64,000 bases of DNA from a virus (Duplodnaviria > Heunggongvirae > Uroviricota > Caudoviricetes): IMG/VR virus record IMGVR_UViG_3300029305_001878, positions 64,001 through 128,000 of that record. One strand, written 5' to 3'. Positions within the stretch are counted from its first letter, which is position 1, and every line of letters starts with the position of its first letter. The translations under genes were made by a program, and so were the position numbers. Positions 4,215 through 56,574 of the stretch are shown piece by piece. A model generated the notes under the pieces. The model ran no database searches and was not told the DNA's origin. It saw only the letters and a list, made by a program, of their open reading frames with translations.

Positions 4215-4604
4215 TTATTTTTTATTAAGATTTACACTTGCTTCAATTTTTTTACTTATATAAGTATCTAAATCTCCAACTACTGTTGCTAAATATTCTT
4301 TAGCATCATCTGTTAGAATTAACATAACCGCGTCGGCTGACTTTTTAAAAGCCTCTTTTTGCGCTTCAATAGTAAATTCGCCTTTACTTTTTAAACTTTC
4401 AACATAAGTTTGATTTGTAGCAATAACGCAATCAGTAATTGTCTTTTCTAATAATGTCATATACTTATCATATTGAGCATTATTAGTTTTTTCTTTTACT
4501 TCTTTCATATGAGTATTTAACCATTTAATAAAATAAGTAGTTAAAACTCCTAACAGAGGTATAATACATACTTCAAAAATTTGAGCAATTAATCCAATTT
4601 CCAT
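4215..4604 (-). CDS. membrane protein with N-terminal TM helix and coiled-coil (holin/XhlA-like?)
   Basis: Intact 129-aa ORF with GGAGG RBS and TAA stop. Hydrophobic N-terminus IAQIFEVCIIPLLGVLTTYF. Confidence 0.4.
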   Translation of the reverse strand: MEIGLIAQIFEVCIIPLLGVLTTYFIKWLNTHMKEVKEKTNNAQYDKYMTLLEKTITDCVIATNQTYVESLKSKGEFTIEAQKEAFKKSADAVMLILTDDAKEYLATVVGDLDTYISKKIEASVNLNKK

Positions 4605-4620
4605 ATATTATTCCTCCTTA

Positions 4621-7600
4621 TTAATAATAACTTTCAGTATCCCATACAGGGATTATTTTATTTAAATAACTTGCAGTATAAGTAATTTCTTTAGCATATA
4701 TATCATCTTCAACAATAGAGTCACTTAATACGGCTTCACCAGTTAATAACATTAATGACCAATTGTTATTAACATATTGACCCCACCAGGTTTCTTCAGC
4801 AACTAGTTTAGTAGCATCTTCCTTATCGATGTGATATATATTCATAGTATATACTTCACCATTTTGGCTATTAGGTACTCCATTCGCAATATCATATTGA
4901 GAAATAATATCATTTAATTCATCTATCTTACTAATATAATAAACAGACGAATTATTTTCATCTTTCTCTAATGAGCCTACTTCAACATTGTCTTTACGAA
5001 TAAATTGTAAAGTCTTTACACTTTGAGGGGTGCCAACAGGACCTAAAATAGAACCTTGCTTTATCCATTTTCCATTTATATACATAAATACCCAGCCACG
5101 GCAAGGGTCATCTACTCGAGTTACAGTATGAATATAAATATCATTTTCACTTAAATCTCTATCTTCTAAAATATTAGGCTAATAAGAGTTTGTGTCTGCG
5201 TTCCAAGATAAATCTTTATCTTTAAGGTCTGAAGCAGTAAAAATATGAATTGCTTTTGGTAAATAGAAACTAAATAATTGAACATCTTGATTTCTAATTG
5301 ATTCCTCTATTTGAATCTCTTCTCTATTATTTATTTCTATTTTTTCACTTCTAAAGTAAGGAATATTTGGAATATGAAAAATAAATTTTTCTCGATATCC
5401 ATTATCTTTTTCTCCTATTAATAAATTAGTTGATAATTCAACTTTTGAACGTGTATATTTCTAAATATTATCTACTGAATCTTTATAAAGTTCAAAAGCA
5501 GATTTTTCTTGAATTTCAACTTCTGGAGAAGGTGCTGTTATAATTCCTATATATCTTACACTTAATAAATTTTCTTTTTTACTCTTAAATTGATATAATC
5601 TACCTGAAGGCTTATTAATATACATATCTCCAGGTAATACGTCCTATTCTAATAAAGCAAAATGATATCTTAAATTAGATAATAAATAAGTATATTTTTG
5701 AATATATTTTATTATATCATAAGAATAAATAAGATATTCTCTTTCAACACTTTCTTCTAATAAATTATCTTCATTATGCAATTTAATATAAATCCATCTT
5801 AAATCAATAACTGAATCATAAGAATTATATAAATTTAATAAAGTAGATAAATTTGAATTCCACATATAACCTTTATAATACTAATAACAATATTCATACT
5901 ATTTATCAGTATTTAAAGTATTAAAATATTCTTTACTATAAAAATTATTTTTATTCCAACAATCATTTAAGAGATTTAAATCATTAATTGTATTAGGTCT
6001 ATAATTAGAGATAAAATTTTCTAATGGTTCTTTCATTTGATATAATTCTGAATAAATTGCATCACAATAGTCTTCTAATTTATCTTTATATTCATATTTT
6101 AAAGTATTTTTATTAAAACCATATAAGCCCCAAGGAATTTTATTTTCTAAATCATCTACTTCAGAAGTATTACTTAAAATATTAAGCAAACTTTTATCTT
6201 TGTAATAATAATTTTTGATAGAAGGATAATTATCAATATTATTATTTATATAATCAGTAAATAATCTTACACTAAATATTTTATCAGTATCATCTACTGT
6301 CATAATTTCAACAGAACCATTACCACCATCAAAATATAAAATAGTTCCTTTAACTTCGTTAATAGGACATAATTTTGCATATACTCTAATAAAATTATCT
6401 AATATTTCGACTCTAAAGAAATCTTCTTCATAAGGATTGCTCATTGTAAGAATTGCAGAGTGAGAAGTTGTTATTCCTTCTACTGGAATGTCAACATAGA
6501 ACTAATAACTTTCAGTAGCATAATTAGGATTAACTTCCCAATTTCCAAGAGTATCAATACTATATTTTCCCGCTGGTTCTATCCCTTCGCCAATCTATAC
6601 TGCAATCATTCCATCACGAGTATTAACTGTTTCATCTTGATTTAAATCAGCATACATTAATTCGACTTCATCTTCTATGCCAACTAAAGATTCTGTTATA
6701 ATTCTTCCATCTTCAGAATCAATCTTTCCATCACCGTTAACATCACCACGCATACGACCGGCCGGAATGGTAATTTCCTAATTCTCACTATTATTACTTA
6801 TATCCGCCGCGCTTAATGCGCCGCGCAGTAAACTAGTTAAATCAACTATTTTATTAATATCTTCACTACTACAACTATAAATAATATCATCAAAAGACCA
6901 AGGATGTTCTGCAGTATAACTAAATGGAAATTCATTTAAATCGCCTTGCCCAAATAAAGGACCAGAGAAATACTTTACTTCTCTTGGTAACTAAAAATCT
7001 AAAATAGGTTTAGTTAAAGTTGCTTCAACTAATTTACCATCAATTTCTCTAACTTCACCACTTACTAACAAATCAACATCTGGGTCTCTAGTAGGCCCTA
7101 GAACTGTATTATAAATATTTTCAATTCTCTATGCTCTTTGCTAATAAAATTTAATCTGTGGTTTATCAGGGTTAGTTAAATCATAGGTCACATAAGGATC
7201 TCCATCTTCAATATCAATAGTCTAATGGAAAACTTGAATTCTTGGAGTTTGACCTGTAACACAAGCAATTAAACGATAACCAAAGCCAAAATTCTCTTCA
7301 GAATAAATATCAGAAGTTTCTTTTAAACTTTCACCAGGTATCTATCTAAATCTAATAATAGTACCATCAGGATTAATCCAGTTACCATCTTTATCACAAG
7401 GAACATTTTGATTTAAACTTGGAGAATAAATAGAGTATGTTCCATCTCCATTAGGATTTACTTCTCCAACATCTTCAAAATTAATAAAAACATAAACATT
7501 TTCTTCCGAATTGGGAAAGTCAGGAGATACTTCTTTACTATCTTCTACATAAATCTTCTACCAAATAGAGTTAGTATAAGATTTACCACAATTCATTAAG

Positions 7601-8556: not shown

Positions 8557-11500
8557 TTATACTCTTACCATTGCTTGATTAGTAGTAATAGACATATTAC
8601 CATTATATCCCAATGGTAATGTATATTGAGTAATAATGTAATCTCCATATATATTACTCTTACTATCACTAACATAAATAATATTATTTGGTTCTAAATA
8701 ATATTTTGGTACACAATTTATATTAACAGAAATATTATAATATAAATTACTATATAACATTTCTCGAATTAAATCAAAAGCCGTAGTTCCAGTAGAACTT
8801 GAAGCAAAGTATTTCATTTGAGAAGGCTTAATAGCACAATACTATTGTCCTAAAATTTGATACTCTTCTATCTACTGTAAAACTTCAGCAGTACCTGTAT
8901 TTTCAATAAAGACAATATCAGGTACTTCTAATTTATACAACATTTTAATATTTTCTTTAGTAATCGCTTTAGTGCGGCGACCTATCTAATTTACTGAATA
9001 AGTATTTATTAACTAAATACTATCAATAAAATCTAACCAAAATGTTAATAAACCTGGGTCCCTATATATCGCAGGATTCCAACCTTCCCAATTATCATCG
9101 ATATAATCTACCCATTCTTTTTTCCATTCTTCATTTAAAGTATCAAAATTCTAACGCCAAAACGCTAACAGTTCTTCATCATAATAGCCCGTTTCACCTG
9201 CACTCGATTGATTCAATAAGGCTTGACGATATAATTCTTCTCGCCACTCTTCGCAAGGATTACCAATTAAATCATAATAAAAATTATTTTCATAATCAAA
9301 ATCATTTTTTAATTCAGGGCTATAAGTAATAACTTCTTGTAAATAGTTCGCGGCCGGCGCACTTGATAAATCAACTTTATAATTATAATAATAATCAGCC
9401 ACTTCTAATAGTAACTAATTTACAAAATCATCTAATCCTGCAACTAAATAATAATCATAAATTAATTTACCATCTTCGACACTAACAATAGAAAACTATG
9501 TTTTTTCTTCCTCTTCTTTTTCTTCTTCTTTTGGTTGTTCATCATCGTACTTATTATCAGTATCCCGGTCTGGATCTATAGTTTCAGTCCAAGGCAATAA
9601 ATTATTATAATCTTCATTATTGGCTAAATCAACTATAACTCCTATATCATTAACTAAAGCAGTAGAATTTTGAGAATAATAAGATGTTAAATTTTTTATC
9701 ATTTTTTCTCTATTTTCTTTAGAGAACAATATTTTTCCTTCTGAATCAGTAACATCTTCAAAATTATAAATAAATTTAATATCAATCTTATCTCCGTTGC
9801 CTTGACGAATATCTTGAGGATTTGCGTCATTCATATATAAACCTGATGAATTATTTATTTTTGTAATTACTGATAAATTATTATATTCATCTACAAAATC
9901 ATTAGATACAAAAATTCTGATATTATGAGTTGTTTTAAAAAGTGAAGAAATACTTTCTAAATCTTCAATACTCATTTTAGAATCTTTTAAAGTATAGACA
10001 CTTATCCATTCTTCTTTTTCATCATAATATCCTAACTCTTTTTCTTTTAATTGTAATAAAATATAATATTTTTCAATTACTTCTTCCTCTTCTTCCTCTG
10101 CTAAAGTTTCTATACTAGAATCAACCTCTTCAGTCCAATCAAGAATATTATCTCCTTCAGAATCAGTATCTTCTTTTGGAGCATTATATATTCCTATTAA
10201 AAAAGATTGCTTTGATATAGTATCTGTATACATATCTAAATACTCGATATATTCAATAGCCTATTCTTTTATTGAAGCCTTATAATATCTAATCTCATTG
10301 CCCCAATAGACTCTTAAATATAGAATAAAAGAACTTTCATATGAAGAATAATTTACATAATTTTTTATTAAATAATCTGTGATATTGTCTATTATCTATT
10401 CTTCTTTTGTATTTGTTGAATCAAAATATAACTCAATAGGTTCTGGTTTAGGCACATTTATATAATCTTTATAAGTTGGCTCAAATAAATAATATAAATG
10501 TTCTTTTTTACCATTTTTATAATTTAATACTTCCCACATATATTGATTAGCCAAATCAATATAAGGTTTTTCATCTATTGCAACGTGATACTTTAAATTT
10601 TTTGTAACACCATTTGCATCTGTGCGACTTCCCCAAACAACAAAATCATTTTTAATATTATCATATCGAGGACTATTGTAATAAGATAAACTATCTTTAG
10701 CATTGTCTAATGTTTTATAATATTTAGTATCAGAAAAGGCTTTAATATAAAAATTATCATTTAATTCCATAACAGGAGTATAATAACTATTTAAATAATT
10801 TTTCTTTTCTTGAAAAACAAAATGCCCATCTAAATCATAAAAATATTCATAATTTCCAATAGTCTAAATGATTTTATCTAAAACTGCGGTGACTGGCTCA
10901 CCTGCAGAAAATACTAACTCTCCTGGATAAGTAAAATCAGTTTCCATATAACCAATATCTTGTCCATAGATAAATTTATGCGCTAAAAAATTTTCATTAT
11001 CTGGTGCTTTTTCACTAATCATAAAACTGCTATAATCATCAGTAAACCAAATAGGATAAGTACCCATATATTTCATACTTTGTTTAGCAACTAATTCTAC
11101 ATCATTAATGATAATATTTTGTTCAATCTCTTTACCATAATGACGTACTAATTCTTTTATAATAGTAAAAATTGGAATTTTTTCAATTTTTATATCGCCA
11201 AATTCATCTTCTATTTGCGCTTCGTGGAAAGTTACTGTAGCGGGTAAGGTGCCGCCGCAAGTACCATCAAGCATACACATTTTATCTTTGCCTTTTATGC
11301 TAATAGTAGCAGAAGTTGCAGTTGTTGAACTTGTTGCCTCTGTAATAACATATACTCCAATAGGAAACCAAATTATATCTCCGTAGTAAGCATATGTCTT
11401 AAAAGGATTTTTTATACCAATTTCAACTTTAATTTTTTTATTAGCAGAAATGATATTATCAATATTACTAATATCATTTTCATTTTCAGGAGCAACTAAA

Positions 11501-52617: not shown

Positions 52618-53037
52618 ATGAAAAAGTTCACTAAGAGAGAAAGCCTGACTGCCATTTCCAATGTCCTGAATGAACTGCTTGTCGCAGAGGGCAACACGGT
52701 TCTCGCCAATGTCAAGGACAAGGAATACACCGTACAGGATGCATTGGAATTTTGTTCCAACGAAATCAGCCTGTTGGACAAGAAGAACGGCACGGTAAAG
52801 AAGCCGACCGACAAGCAGATGCAGAACGAAAACTACAAGGAAGCAATTCTGCGTTATCTGCGAGAGGTTGCCCCGGAACACAAGGCAATCGCCGAAATTT
52901 GGGATAGCGTGGAAATGCTCGCAAGTAATCCCGATATGACCGGTCAGAGAATTTCCGCTCTGATTACACAGTTGAAGAACGAGAACAAGATTGTTCGAGT
53001 TGAGGAAAAGCGGAAAGCCTATTTCAAGGCAGTATAA
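52618..53037 (+). CDS. winged-helix DNA-binding protein, paralog A (139 aa)
   Basis: C-terminal ~70 aa (…YLREVAPEHKAIAEIWD…PDMTGQRISALITQLKNENKIVRVEEKRKAYFKA) are near-identical to 54407..54817, including at the DNA level. Promoter ~52510 contains the palindrome GACTTTTGAAAGTC. Conserved translation-initiation region. Confidence 0.55.
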   Translation: MKKFTKRESLTAISNVLNELLVAEGNTVLANVKDKEYTVQDALEFCSNEISLLDKKNGTVKKPTDKQMQNENYKEAILRYLREVAPEHKAIAEIWDSVEMLASNPDMTGQRISALITQLKNENKIVRVEEKRKAYFKAV

Positions 53038-53140: not shown

Positions 53141-53500
53141 ATGACAAACGAACAGAAAAAGCGTTTGGAGTTTACAATGAAAACTCTGAATATGACCGAA
53201 GCCGAAGTGCTTGCAATGTGGGAAGAGGACAAAGCAATCGACAAGGGCGAAAAACTTTATGAACTTGACCCCGAACTGGAAGCAGGAGCGAAAAAGGCTC
53301 GGCAGGCTGATCGCAAGAAGAACAGCGAACCTACCAAGAGAGAGCGCAAAGAGGACACCGACAAAACGGAAATCCTAAATGCTCTAATGGATAGCGTAAG
53401 TTCCAAAGCGGAGAAAATCGAAAAGACCAAAAGCGGCGAATTTGAATTTGTTTTCAATGGTCGCAAATTCAAGGTCGTACTTTCTGCCCCTCGCAAGTGA
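53141..53500 (+). CDS. early basic/acidic hypothetical protein (119 aa)
   Basis: Promoter TTGACA ~53075 / TATAAT, AAAGGAGATG RBS and TGA. Confidence 0.5.
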   Translation: MTNEQKKRLEFTMKTLNMTEAEVLAMWEEDKAIDKGEKLYELDPELEAGAKKARQADRKKNSEPTKRERKEDTDKTEILNALMDSVSSKAEKIEKTKSGEFEFVFNGRKFKVVLSAPRK

Positions 53501-53529
53501 GGGGCAGAAAAGAAAGTGAGGTAAAAAAA

Positions 53530-53715
53530 ATGACAAGGGAAATGCTAGAAATTGAATACCAGACTGCTTGGGAAACAATGCAGGAAGCAGAGCGAAATTA
53601 TAAAATGGCTCGCGCAAACTTTCACGATGTTGCAGGATTGCTAATGGAAAAGTTGATGCTTGAAAATGTGGATGTGCTTGCGCGATTGCGCGAAGCAGAC
53701 ACCCCTACGATTTAA
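53530..53715 (+). CDS. early small coiled-coil protein (61 aa)
   Basis: GTGAGG RBS and ATG 53530. TAA, followed by the bidirectional terminator gtgtgcgcggctggcgcacac. Confidence 0.45.
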   Translation: MTREMLEIEYQTAWETMQEAERNYKMARANFHDVAGLLMEKLMLENVDVLARLREADTPTI

Positions 53716-53760
53716 CCAATTAAAGTGTGCGCGGCTGGCGCACACTTTATTTTATTAAAG

Positions 53761-53816
53761 TTATCGATATACTTTTATCGATATATTTCATTTTTATCGA
53801 TATATTTTTATCGATA
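53761..53816. repeat. four iterons of the palindromic 9-mer TTATCGATA at 15-18-bp spacing
   Basis: Copies at 53761, 53775, 53794 and 53808. Flanked by two hairpins and the motif TTTAGTCAAATGAAG. Confidence 0.6.
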
Positions 53817-53835
53817 ACTTTAACGCTTTAGTCAA

Positions 53836-53915
53836 ATGAAGCGCCGGGCGCTGACGTACGATGCTCCCACGTCAGCGCCGGAATTTCCATTATACCACAC
53901 CGCCAGCATTTTGTC
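53836..53915 (-). promoter_or_regulatory. leftward promoter (TTGACA-N17-TATAAT on the minus strand) firing through a 12-bp-stem hairpin and the iteron array
   Basis: Revcomp of 53880-53912 is gcTTGACAaaatgctggcggtgtggTATAATgg. Hairpin cgggcgctgacgt…acgtcagcgccgg at 53840-53880. No minus-strand ORF downstream. Confidence 0.4.
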
Positions 53916-53923
53916 AAGCAAAA

Positions 53924-54035
53924 AGTTGCACAAAAATAAATAAATTATTTATCCCGAAATTGTGCAACTTTTTCTGCAAAAGTTACAAATTGTAATTGAC
54001 TTCCTATGAGGTCGGTGTTATAATGTTAGTGTCAA
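53924..54035 (+). promoter_or_regulatory. 13-bp-arm palindrome AAAAGTTGCACAA-N25-TTGTGCAACTTTT plus GTTACAAATTGTAA palindrome overlapping promoter TTGACT-N17-TATAAT
   Basis: An almost identical copy of the whole unit lies at 55452-55535. Confidence 0.55.
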
Positions 54036-54150
54036 GGGGAGATACCTCTGAGCCACATCTATGGTGTGGGGCTACGGTTGGAAGTAGCAATAGACCTTGG
54101 TGCTCATAAAATTGCAATAGATGAGTTGCATAGGAACGCACGAGGATGTG
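54036..54150 (+). ncRNA. candidate small non-coding transcript 1 (promoter-proximal, conserved 5' GTTAGTGTCAAGGGGA leader)
   Basis: A consensus promoter immediately upstream and a second full promoter (TTGACA 54165) downstream. No RBS-led ORF. Contains the hairpin gtgaaaaaattttcac. Confidence 0.25.
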
Positions 54151-54195
54151 AAAAAATTTTCACAGAAACCCCTTGACAAACTCCACCAAGTGTGG

Positions 54196-54310
54196 TACAA
54201 TAAAGGTGTCAAGGGGAATGAGAGACTATCGTCCCCAGTTACAAGGGAGACCACAGGGGATTACATCGGCCGAGTAAGTGGTGTTGCTTGAAAAGAAATT
54301 TGAGAAAATT
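54196..54310 (+). ncRNA. candidate small non-coding transcript 2 (5' GGTGTCAAGGGGAATG)
   Basis: Lies between promoter TTGACA 54165 / TACAAT and promoter TTGACA 54325 / TATAAT. No RBS-led ORF. Contains the hairpin ggggaatgagagactatcgtcccc. Confidence 0.25.
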
Positions 54311-54406
54311 TCTGAAAACCCCTTGACAAATCACCAAGTCTATGATATAATATCAATGTAATCAAGGGAAGGAAAACCCTTAAAAAACCAGAAAGGAATT
54401 GATACT

Positions 54407-54817
54407 ATGGCTAACAAGATGGTAAAGAGAGATTATTTCACTGCTCTGCGTGGCTTCATCGAAGCCCATCCCGAAGTGCATTTCGGCACTGATAAGCATC
54501 CCGACATCCCTATCGGTGATATGCTTGCGTTCGTGGATAACGAACTGACCCTGCTTGCTTCCAAGTCTGGGGCAATCAAGAAGCCCACTGAAAAGCAGAC
54601 TCAGAATGAGGTTTACAAGACCGCTATTCTGCAGTATCTGCGCGAAGTGGCTCCCGAGCATAAGTCCATCGCTGAAATTTGGGATGGCGTGGAAGCCCTT
54701 TCCACTAACCCCGATATGACGGGTCAGAGAATTTCCGCTCTGATTACGCAGTTGAAGAATGACAATCTGATTGTCAGAATCGAAGAGAAGCGCAAGGCTT
54801 ACTTTAAGGCTGCGTAA
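54407..54817 (+). CDS. winged-helix DNA-binding protein, paralog B (136 aa)
   Basis: Same C-terminal domain as 52618..53037. Conserved translation-initiation region GAAAGGAATTGATACTATG. TAA plus terminator (ggggggctaagccccccg). Confidence 0.55.
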   Translation: MANKMVKRDYFTALRGFIEAHPEVHFGTDKHPDIPIGDMLAFVDNELTLLASKSGAIKKPTEKQTQNEVYKTAILQYLREVAPEHKSIAEIWDGVEALSTNPDMTGQRISALITQLKNDNLIVRIEEKRKAYFKAA

Positions 54818-55336: not shown

Positions 55337-55440
55337 TATTGACAAATCCAAGCAGATGTGGTATAATGGCCGGCCCTCCACGTGCGCTCGGGCCGGTTTT
55401 TCCATTATACCACGCCTCCCGCATTTTTGTCAAGCGTTTT
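55337..55440. promoter_or_regulatory. face-to-face consensus promoters sharing a GC hairpin (plus: TTGACA-N17-TATAAT 55340-55368; minus: revcomp of 55400-55432)
   Basis: The ggccggccc…gggccgg hairpin plus T5 sits between the two convergent -10 boxes. The minus copy matches the 53880-53912 promoter. Confidence 0.45.
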
Positions 55441-55451
55441 TATAAAAAAAG

Positions 55452-55535
55452 TTGCACAAAATAAAATCCCGAATTTGTGCAACTTTTTCTTGAAAAGTTA
55501 CAATTTGTAATTGACTTCTATGGCTTCTGGATGTA
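55452..55535 (+). promoter_or_regulatory. second copy of the TTGTGCAAC palindrome plus promoter cassette
   Basis: aaaaagttgcacaaa…aatttgtgcaactttt, then gttacaatttgtaattgactt…TATAAT. Confidence 0.5.
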
Positions 55536-56105: not shown

Positions 56106-56172
56106 AAAAACTCTCTTTTTTTTATGCAAATTGACTATTGACAAATTGCGGCGACCTGTGGTATAATAAAGA

Positions 56173-56335
56173 GATAGGGCTTGCCTTCGGCGGGTCGGCC
56201 GCGGCAGCAAGGACCCGAATTCCCGATCGGGTAACCATATGCAAATTTTTCTGTGCATCAAGCGATATATGCCTTTATTCCCGTGCATCCCGAAACCTTA
56301 ATCTACTTAATGGGCGTTTTACGCCCATTAAAGAA
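56173..56335 (+). ncRNA. candidate GC-rich structured sRNA (~160 nt) with its own extended -10 promoter and terminator
   Basis: Promoter TTGACA 56140 / TGgTATAAT. Stems gccTTCGgc, ggccgcggc and cccgatcggg. Ends at aatgggcg…cgcccatt. The only internal ATG ORF is 20 aa and lacks an RBS. The listed ORF 56138..56347 starts at the TTG of the -35 box. Confidence 0.3.
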
Positions 56336-56346
56336 ATCCACACTTG

Positions 56347-56540
56347 ACTTTTTTTAAAAAATATGATATAATATTAAAAAAAACCTAAATTTTTGCCGCT
56401 TTTCCGCCCTTTTTGCCTAATCCAGAAGCAGAAAACTTGACTTTTCTTAAAAAATATGATATAATTATAAAAAAAACCTAAAAATTTCGCGCAAAAACGC
56501 ACTTTTCTTGACAAAATTAAAAAAAAATGGTATAATATTT
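56347..56540 (+). promoter_or_regulatory. three tandem near-consensus promoters upstream of gene 56575
   Basis: TTGACT-N17-TATAAT at ~56347 and ~56437. TTGACA-N-TGgTATAAT at ~56508. Confidence 0.5.
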
Positions 56541-56574
56541 ATAGAAAATAAGAAAAAAATGGAGGATTTATTAA

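Follow-up and report, generated by a model that had tools for sequence, protein, structure and literature searches.

The DNA analysed here, referred to as the window, was a stretch of 64 kb from a TAG-recoded phage of about 185 kb. PHROG matches to a portal, a tape-measure protein, a sigma-like factor and virion proteins supported the phage origin of the window. On its minus strand, the genes for late and structural functions (1-43400) were TAG-recoded: ORFs of at least 200 aa in the first 43.4 kb summed to 2,448 aa under the standard code versus 12,638 aa, the longest being 2,886 aa, when TAG was not counted as a stop. The standard code was used in the early region (43.6-57 kb), which contained the repeat array described below and had a higher GC content. 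No suppressor tRNA was found within the 64-kb window. Perfect sigma-70 promoters were dense in the early region (16 observed versus 4.6 expected in 3 kb), and the GC skew of the window followed gene orientation only. The same phage was present on a 185.5-kb metagenome contig (Ga0318466_10001127) and on nine others; all ten carried the 119-aa ORF preceding the array and were 100% identical over the locus, so that they provided no variation for comparison. A blastn search with positions 53300-54700 gave no match among GenBank phages, no close relatives of the 250-aa exonuclease were found in viral contigs, and the six ORFs nearest to the array had no Pfam or PHROG match.

Between positions 53700 and 53930, a short rightward ORF ended with its stop codon at 53715; next came a terminator able to form a stem-loop, then the four repeats, then a hairpin rich in GC and finally a promoter directed leftward. 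Promoters and terminators are called here and below by consensus matches only. The intrinsic terminator (53721-53749) serves the rightward operon formed by the ORFs at 53141-53500 and 53531-53715. It consisted of a GC-rich stem of 12 pairs, conserved in the nearest relative of the locus (L101), and a T-tract on the + strand (TTTTATTAAA, with a TTTTATT tail). An earlier, sequence-only reading of this DNA had placed a bidirectional terminator at 53725-53755; the terminator was confirmed at the shifted coordinates, but a good T-tract accompanied it only on the + strand, and the stem-loop of the - strand, with its poor T-tail, was the weaker one.

The 9-mer TTATCGATA pointed out by that reading was indeed present in four exact copies on the + strand (53761, 53775, 53794 and 53808) and in no other exact copy in the window. 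The repeat was palindromic as proposed, although the true palindrome was the 8-mer TATCGATA and not the 9-mer, and the copies started 14, 19 and 14 bp apart instead of the 15-18 bp given previously. The four cores, located at 53762-69, 53776-83, 53795-802 and 53809-16, were the sole exact copies of TATCGATA in the window, and the whole array formed a palindrome with 29-nt arms (53755-53783 and 53795-53823). The concern that the motif could be common by chance in AT-rich DNA did not hold: four copies were found versus 1.9 expected per 64 kb, all of them within 55 nt, and chance was excluded because the cores cluster and are conserved in L101. The array was abutted by one minus-strand copy of another repeated motif, TTGACTAAAKCGYTAAAG (53835..53818). 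This motif occurred eight times in the window versus 0.13 expected, in non-coding DNA of the early region (+ strand: 46329, 46395, 46458, 50710, 50761, 50820 and 50965; - strand: 53835..53818), and many TTTGTGCAWWWTGACGAA motifs were present in the same regions.

The hairpin with a 12-bp stem noticed earlier was borne out, with the coordinates corrected to 53847-53879, so that it would span nucleotides of about +4 to +36 in the leftward transcript; GGAATTTCC came next on the + strand. Hairpins of different sequence occupied this position in the second copy of the module in the window and in the relative L065. The leftward sigma-70-type promoter on the - strand (-35 at 53917..53912, -10 at 53894..53889) matched TTGACA-17-TATAAT at 12 of 12 positions (53917..53889), as claimed, and additionally had a TG extension, with the start predicted at about 53882. 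It was duplicated at 55433..55404 and had a homologue in L065, and it was absent from L101. The leftward unit, predicted to be non-coding and about 160 nt long (53721-53882, - strand), comprised the hairpin, a TTGACT motif, two putative protein-binding sites discussed below and the terminator. No ORF of at least 30 aa started between the predicted start and the terminator, in agreement with the earlier description of a promoter lacking a downstream gene; the single ATG in this interval opened 14 codons and had no RBS. The predicted RNA folded into three hairpins with a dG of -72.9 kcal/mol (z -9.8).

On the other side of the leftward promoter, and apart from the array, an operator-like inverted repeat, AAAAAGTTGCACAA-N26-TTGTGCAACTTTTT (53920-53973), was located between divergent promoters. 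It was duplicated at 55446-55488 and recurred, its arms again 26 nt apart, in L120, a distant relative; it is probably the operator of a phage or host regulator. The rightward promoter of the divergent pair (53996-54024, + strand) matched the consensus at 11 of 12 positions with TG and led into an apparently non-coding stretch. The region 53877-54003, encompassing the leftward promoter, the inverted repeat and the rightward promoter, was duplicated at 55392-55518, where the array was lacking.

Several other features of the early region were observed. At 55339-55433, two perfect consensus promoters (+ strand, 55339-55367; - strand, 55433..55404) were convergent and 37 nt apart, with a CCGGCCC..GGGCCGG hairpin between them; a transcript from the rightward one would measure no more than about 30 nt. 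Three near-identical tandem promoters (CTTGAC..TATGATATAAT), spaced by 93 and 71 nt, were located at 56343-56547 upstream of the ORF 56508/56575. Downstream of strong promoters, three GC-rich and apparently non-coding stretches were detected (54025-54170, 54202-54320 and 56168-56340), two of which began with GTGTCAAGGGGA. Parts of them were about 80% identical in L053 and L065 and no Rfam match was obtained; they may represent a family of phage small RNAs. Two paralogous ORFs of 139 aa (52618-53037) and 136 aa (54407-54817), 73% identical in nucleotide sequence over the 3' 279 nt, were each located downstream of a strong promoter; they had no Pfam or PHROG match, and by eye the C-terminal half resembled a winged helix.

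The pattern of three TATCGATA cores separated by N6 was searched for in 185,579 bacterial and archaeal genomes (596 Gb). It was detected at 38 bacterial loci (L063-L100) versus about 0.002 expected for 24 fixed bases by our own arithmetic, in Clostridia, Ignavibacteria, Spirochaetes, Planctomycetes, Chloroflexi and others. Rex is the NADH/NAD+ sensor of anaerobic bacteria, and rex, hydC, adhE and ldh constitute its classic regulon. In 29 of the 38 loci, the array was located directly upstream of a gene of this regulon (rex in 20, hydC in four, adhE or Fe-ADH in four and ldh in one). The gene following the array within 0-100 nt coded for 211-255 aa in 20 loci, and all four genes downstream of arrays that were scanned against Pfam contained the Rex domain pair PF06971 and PF02629. 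The hydC of the array loci was NuoE-like, and in many rex loci NuoE-like, NuoF-like and [FeFe]-hydrogenase genes or adhE came next. These bacterial arrays, with three to four cores at a 14-bp period on promoters of rex, hydrogenase, adhE and ldh genes, had a TTGAC -35 element on one side and the RBS on the other, the position expected of an operator. In the window, repeats with this core had been interpreted as iterons of a replication origin, an assignment that is not upheld by these data. DnaA-box, Fur-box, parS and cre were also considered as the identity of the motif and rejected, since the sequences do not fit.

The array-adjacent regulator of L074 matched solved Rex structures (3wg9, E=1e-33). 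The regulators beside the arrays carried the signature IQVRKDLA..GKPKxG[FY] as opposed to QIRxDL..FG..G..GxGY of canonical Rex and, judged by gene neighbourhood in MAGs, appear to be a distinct subfamily of Rex with the wing motif GKPKxG[FY], spread over many phyla; examples are the L074 gene (7160-7807) and Clo1313_1799 of C. thermocellum. The literature searched contained no description of the TATCGATA motif, of the operator of this subfamily or of a second Rex paralogue, or of Rex sites in phages. A second, divergent Rex has been reported for C. thermocellum, with no binding motif described in that study (PMC8457756). In two Planctomycete loci, a canonical-looking Rex box adjoined the array. 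In a Bacteroidales MAG contig (L063, 4272-5676), the TATCGATA clusters lay within a longer repeat (..GGCGAATATCGATAGGGCGAA..) at 15-17-bp spacing and differed from the operator arrays.

The ends of arrays were informative about the unit that is bound. The inner half-core was kept in 36 of 117 cases and the outer half-core in 13 of 117; owing to this difference, the unit is probably TCGATA-N6-TATCGA, an 18-bp palindrome of Rex-like geometry suited to a dimer. Neighbouring predicted sites in arrays at the 14-bp period would then probably share one core. With this unit, the window has two perfect sites 33 bp apart from centre to centre: site A (53764-53781, TCGATA-TACTTT-TATCGA), kept in L101 with a diverged spacer, and site B (53797-53814, TCGATA-TATTTT-TATCGA). 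Other matches in the 64-kb window were weaker and at chance level. Both sites showed the geometry of a Rex operator, i.e., a palindrome of about 18 bp with half-sites roughly one helical turn apart, and in bacteria the motif was found on the promoters that drive rex and genes for NADH recycling. For canonical Rex, the operator published is TTGTGAAN4TTCACAA (PMC2883068, PMC6391272). No cluster of such canonical boxes was present in the window and, due to the absence of a canonical match, the two sites were classified as putative non-canonical sites of the Rex subfamily and not as canonical Rex operators (ROP). Counted from the leftward promoter, the sites fell at about +77 and +110, and neither overlapped a good promoter. 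A weak promoter within the array (TCGATA-17-TATATT, 9/12) and the TTGACT 13 nt from core 4 were examined as a Rex-controlled promoter and discarded, the -10 being poor and nothing lying downstream. Neither the window nor any of the phage loci was found to encode a homologue of Rex. Overall, the comparative evidence makes it likely that the window sites are operators of a host Rex-family protein.

Viral contigs were also scanned for two or three TATCGATA cores. As the sequence-only reading had suggested looking for, the motif recurred in other phages: strict arrays at the 14-bp period were present in unrelated phages, with about 24 cores in L053, 12 in L056, 13 in L058, six to seven in a group of 140-156-kb phages and eight in the T7-like contig L019. 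The phage loci were fragments and the site counts are therefore minimum values. No protein family was common to all array-bearing phage loci. The family of 211-258 aa encoded beside arrays in L033, L035, L043, L062 and L053 was considered as the binder and rejected, as it had no homologue in the window and no Pfam match. In L019, which encodes a single-subunit RNA polymerase and a large terminase, the eight cores (9005-9110) lay between the terminase gene and the early genes, the place of the concatemer junction in T7-type genomes.

To follow the locus itself, twenty relatives of the upstream 119-aa ORF were compared. The array was at the same place in only one of them, the nearest (L101, 72% identity), in which three cores were conserved, the spacer and an outer base differed, and the leftward promoter was not found. 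In the other 19, neither these repeats nor any others were present downstream of the ORF. In L065, seven sites (7-9 cores) were located at a different place, and the homologous promoter-hairpin module had no sites. L065 (JAGBXW010000022.1) is a 56.9-kb contig from yak colon binned as Treponema sp. that has promoters, modules and ORFs in common with the window phage, and is probably a mis-binned contig of a related phage. The sites without the promoter in L101 and the module without the sites in L065 indicate that array and promoter are separable modules, and this separability, together with the absence from 19 relatives, argues against the array being a fixed cis-element such as an origin.

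Further relatives revealed operators of more than one host repressor. TCGATA-N6-TATCGA sites were found in L053 (21) and L065 (7), and canonical Rex boxes in L139 (31), L185 (9) and L218 (5); a relative had either TATCGATA-type sites or canonical Rex boxes, never both. Such mutual exclusion is predicted by a matching of sites to the host, and no other internal evidence speaks as strongly for the TATCGATA sites having the function of canonical Rex boxes. Relatives with canonical boxes often had LexA boxes and CIRCE, the HrcA operator, too, and in L053 a perfect CIRCE adjoined the array of 21 contiguous sites. A scan of viral contigs for CIRCE (L121-L240) yielded at least 120 stretches with perfect elements, which may include host contamination, and there were 13 further relatives of the window phage among the 120 matches listed. 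Four or five tandem CIRCE with a 49-nt period were observed in L177 (5375-5548), and two CIRCE with three copies of ATGAAACGTTTCAT in L200 (7037-7200).

Two of these relatives were particularly rich in sites. L185 was 60-72% identical to the window phage in the region of the sigma-like gene and carried seven perfect canonical Rex boxes, two CIRCE and four copies of the palindrome AGTTAGTTAGTCTAAACTAACT in 900 non-coding nt (4300-5250); its first early promoter was followed by a CIRCE at about +5 and then by four Rex boxes. In L139 (1-12459), 31 Rex boxes (0.06 expected), nine perfect LexA boxes (0 expected) and one CIRCE were found in 12.5 kb. The Rex boxes formed runs at 33-35 bp spacing, after terminators and before early promoters. 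Two leftward units of L139 had the layout of the window, i.e., a promoter, then three or six Rex boxes 33-35 bp apart, then a terminator. The gene-less arrangement of a strong leftward promoter, repeated sites and a terminator, first noticed in the window, is thus real and recurs twice in this relative.

These observations could be explained by host Rex operators that act as an NADH-sensitive roadblock or insulator. The array would be a pair of operators, 33 bp apart, for a host Rex of the non-canonical subfamily, used by a phage without a Rex of its own. At a low NADH/NAD+ ratio in the host, dimers of host Rex would occupy both sites, which lie where no gene is present, with the terminator of the rightward operon on one side and the strong leftward promoter on the other. 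The bound protein would act as a roadblock and halt RNA polymerase coming from that promoter as well as read-through from the rightward operon. A rise in NADH would release Rex and open the block. The placing of operators of host stress repressors (Rex, LexA and HrcA) between and downstream of early promoters would then be a habit of the lineage. The sequences themselves establish the motif, its link to the Rex regulon in bacteria and the layout that recurs in relatives; Rex binding, the roadblock effect and its dependence on redox state are inferred. The roadblock is favoured because the unit holding the sites has no gene and is predicted to be transcribed across them, because this layout recurs in L139, and because in L185 a host operator (CIRCE) has the classic repressing position. 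Against it, the window sites overlap no good promoter and have only a terminator beyond them, which leaves gating without an obvious benefit, L101 has the sites but no leftward promoter, L065 has the promoter-hairpin module without sites, and arrays of 21 sites (L053) far exceed what a roadblock needs. The identity of the sites and the mechanism taken together are proposed tentatively, with slightly less than an even chance that both parts are correct.

The main rival is a sink, in which the sites of the replicating phage genome would titrate host Rex. The fermentation genes by which the host regenerates NAD+ (hydrogenase, AdhE and LDH) would be derepressed, with the nearby phage promoters being incidental, and the LexA boxes and CIRCE of the relatives would likewise turn on the SOS and chaperone regulons. 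The arrays are much larger in phages (6-24 cores) than in bacteria (3-4), as illustrated by the 21 contiguous sites with a perfect CIRCE in L053, the 31 Rex and nine LexA boxes in 12.5 kb of L139 and the seven perfect Rex boxes with two CIRCE in 900 nt of L185. Their position also differs among relatives, and engineered decoy arrays do titrate transcription factors (PMC7826281, PMC3322331). Two sites in 64 kb, however, would make the window a weak sink, transcription from the strong promoter would strip bound protein, the CIRCE just after the promoter in L185 points to regulation, and no natural phage sink was found in the literature searched. Titration explains the very large arrays (L053, L139 and L185) better than the roadblock does and the two-site window less well. 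It is regarded as possible, though doubtful, and the sites could serve as roadblock and sink at once.

Binding of a phage-encoded protein to the sites, as the operator of a repressor or as a partition or packaging site, is unlikely. The adjacent ORFs have no known function, the array follows the operon of the 119-aa and 61-aa ORFs in both the window and L101, and in L019 it lies near the concatemer junction, between terminase and early genes; the 119-aa or 61-aa neighbours or the 139/136-aa paralogues could be the binder. The same core and period, however, were found in unrelated phages and, across many bacterial phyla, beside rex; no array lay downstream of 19 relatives of the 119-aa protein, and the array-bearing phage loci had no family in common. 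As to partition, no ParA, ParM or TubZ-like match was present among the 10 neighbouring ORFs.

A transcription-activated origin, in which an initiator would bind the repeats and the leftward promoter would open or prime AT-rich palindromic DNA, appears still less probable. In its favour, a cruciform could form from the palindromic, AT-rich repeats, a strong promoter with no gene downstream is aimed at them, and promoter-dependent origins occur in T7, T4 and lambda. Iterons, on the other hand, are several direct repeats, usually of 17-22 bp, that bind an initiator and lie in helical phase; the window has 8-bp palindromic cores at 14/19/14, and a 14-bp spacing is out of phase. No initiator-like (Rep-like) gene was found nearby, the neighbours having no Pfam or PHROG match. 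Moreover, the motif is an operator motif in bacteria, 19 of 20 relatives lacked the sites at this place and had no other iterons instead, L101 lacked the promoter, and L139 had more than 10 equivalent clusters in 12.5 kb, too many for origins.

A functional small RNA, or the cis-acting antisense RNA proposed earlier, is similarly improbable: the promoter is perfect, the predicted 160-nt leftward transcript with three hairpins is strongly structured (z = -9.8) and would end opposite the 3' end of the upstream operon, but the structure follows from the DNA palindromes, no Rfam match was obtained at gathering level (only sub-threshold chance matches at E<1), and a product of specific sequence is disfavoured because what relatives have in common is limited to the protein-binding motifs, and even the type of motif varies (different boxes in L139, no promoter in L101, no sites in L065).

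With host Rex operators as the preferred reading of the window sites, a broader view of the lineage can be put forward as a possibility. The TAG-recoded phages might take over host physiology, or time their own programme, without proteins, by means of host-repressor operators in the early region, namely those of Rex (two types matched to the host), LexA and HrcA. It is conceivable, if uncertain, that the replicating genome drains these repressors and thereby switches on the fermentation, SOS and chaperone regulons; the TATCGATA pair of the window would then perhaps be a small member of a DNA sponge, and the motif may be a previously undescribed operator for a Rex subfamily widespread in anaerobes. 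If true, a phage would need nothing more than borrowed DNA sites to read or rewire the redox state of its anaerobic host, and its relatives would do the same for DNA damage and protein-folding stress. This would provide a handle on how the early programme is coupled to host physiology in large phages of gut and rumen whose stop codons are recoded. In addition, TCGATA-N6-TATCGA at a 14-bp period is a candidate operator for the Rex paralogue encoded beside hydrogenase and adhE operons in many phyla, whose bearers include organisms of biofuel interest with a second Rex that has no known site (PMC8457756). For annotation, the case calls for caution, since AT-rich palindromic phage repeats are easily called iterons or origins and may be sites of host transcription factors.

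Compared with known systems, the predicted sites share with the canonical ROP a palindromic organization over 18 bp, with about 10-11 bp from the centre of one half-site to that of the other, a location on promoters of rex, hydrogenase, adhE and ldh in bacteria, and an adjacent regulator with the Rex domain pair that matches Rex crystal structures. They differ in that TCGATA-N6-TATCGA has only six of 14 specified positions in common with the canonical sequence (own alignment of the 18-mers), TATCGATA-type sites abut at a 14-bp period and share a palindromic core, the wing motif of the array-adjacent regulator is different, and the window sites are on a phage, distant from any gene of the regulon. 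The origins of lambda (ori), T7 (primary origin) and T4 (oriF/oriG) resemble the locus in that a promoter fires across short repeats within non-coding, AT-rich DNA. In contrast to them, the window has no cognate initiator gene, its repeats are palindromic operator cores at 14-bp spacing, and their place is not conserved, with one relative having many clusters.

Decoy arrays likewise consist of tandem high-affinity sites (affinity being predicted here) that are not tied to a regulated gene, but they are engineered (PMC7826281, PMC3322331) or chromosomal, whereas those of the window are phage-borne. Titration of a response regulator by decoy sites has been described (PMC8599769); a natural phage-borne sink for Rex, LexA or HrcA was not found in the literature searched. 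A parallel in phages is provided by LexA. Host LexA boxes control phage promoters, e.g., in CTXphi and GIL01, and in these phages, too, a host stress repressor is borrowed via an operator on the phage; perfect LexA boxes were in fact found beside Rex boxes in relatives of the window phage. To our knowledge, the LexA-borrowing cases are single operators on the switch promoter of a temperate phage. For the window phage, the sensor proposed is one of redox and not of DNA damage, and the sites of its lineage stand in runs, in many intergenic gaps and in some gene-less units of a large TAG-recoded phage.
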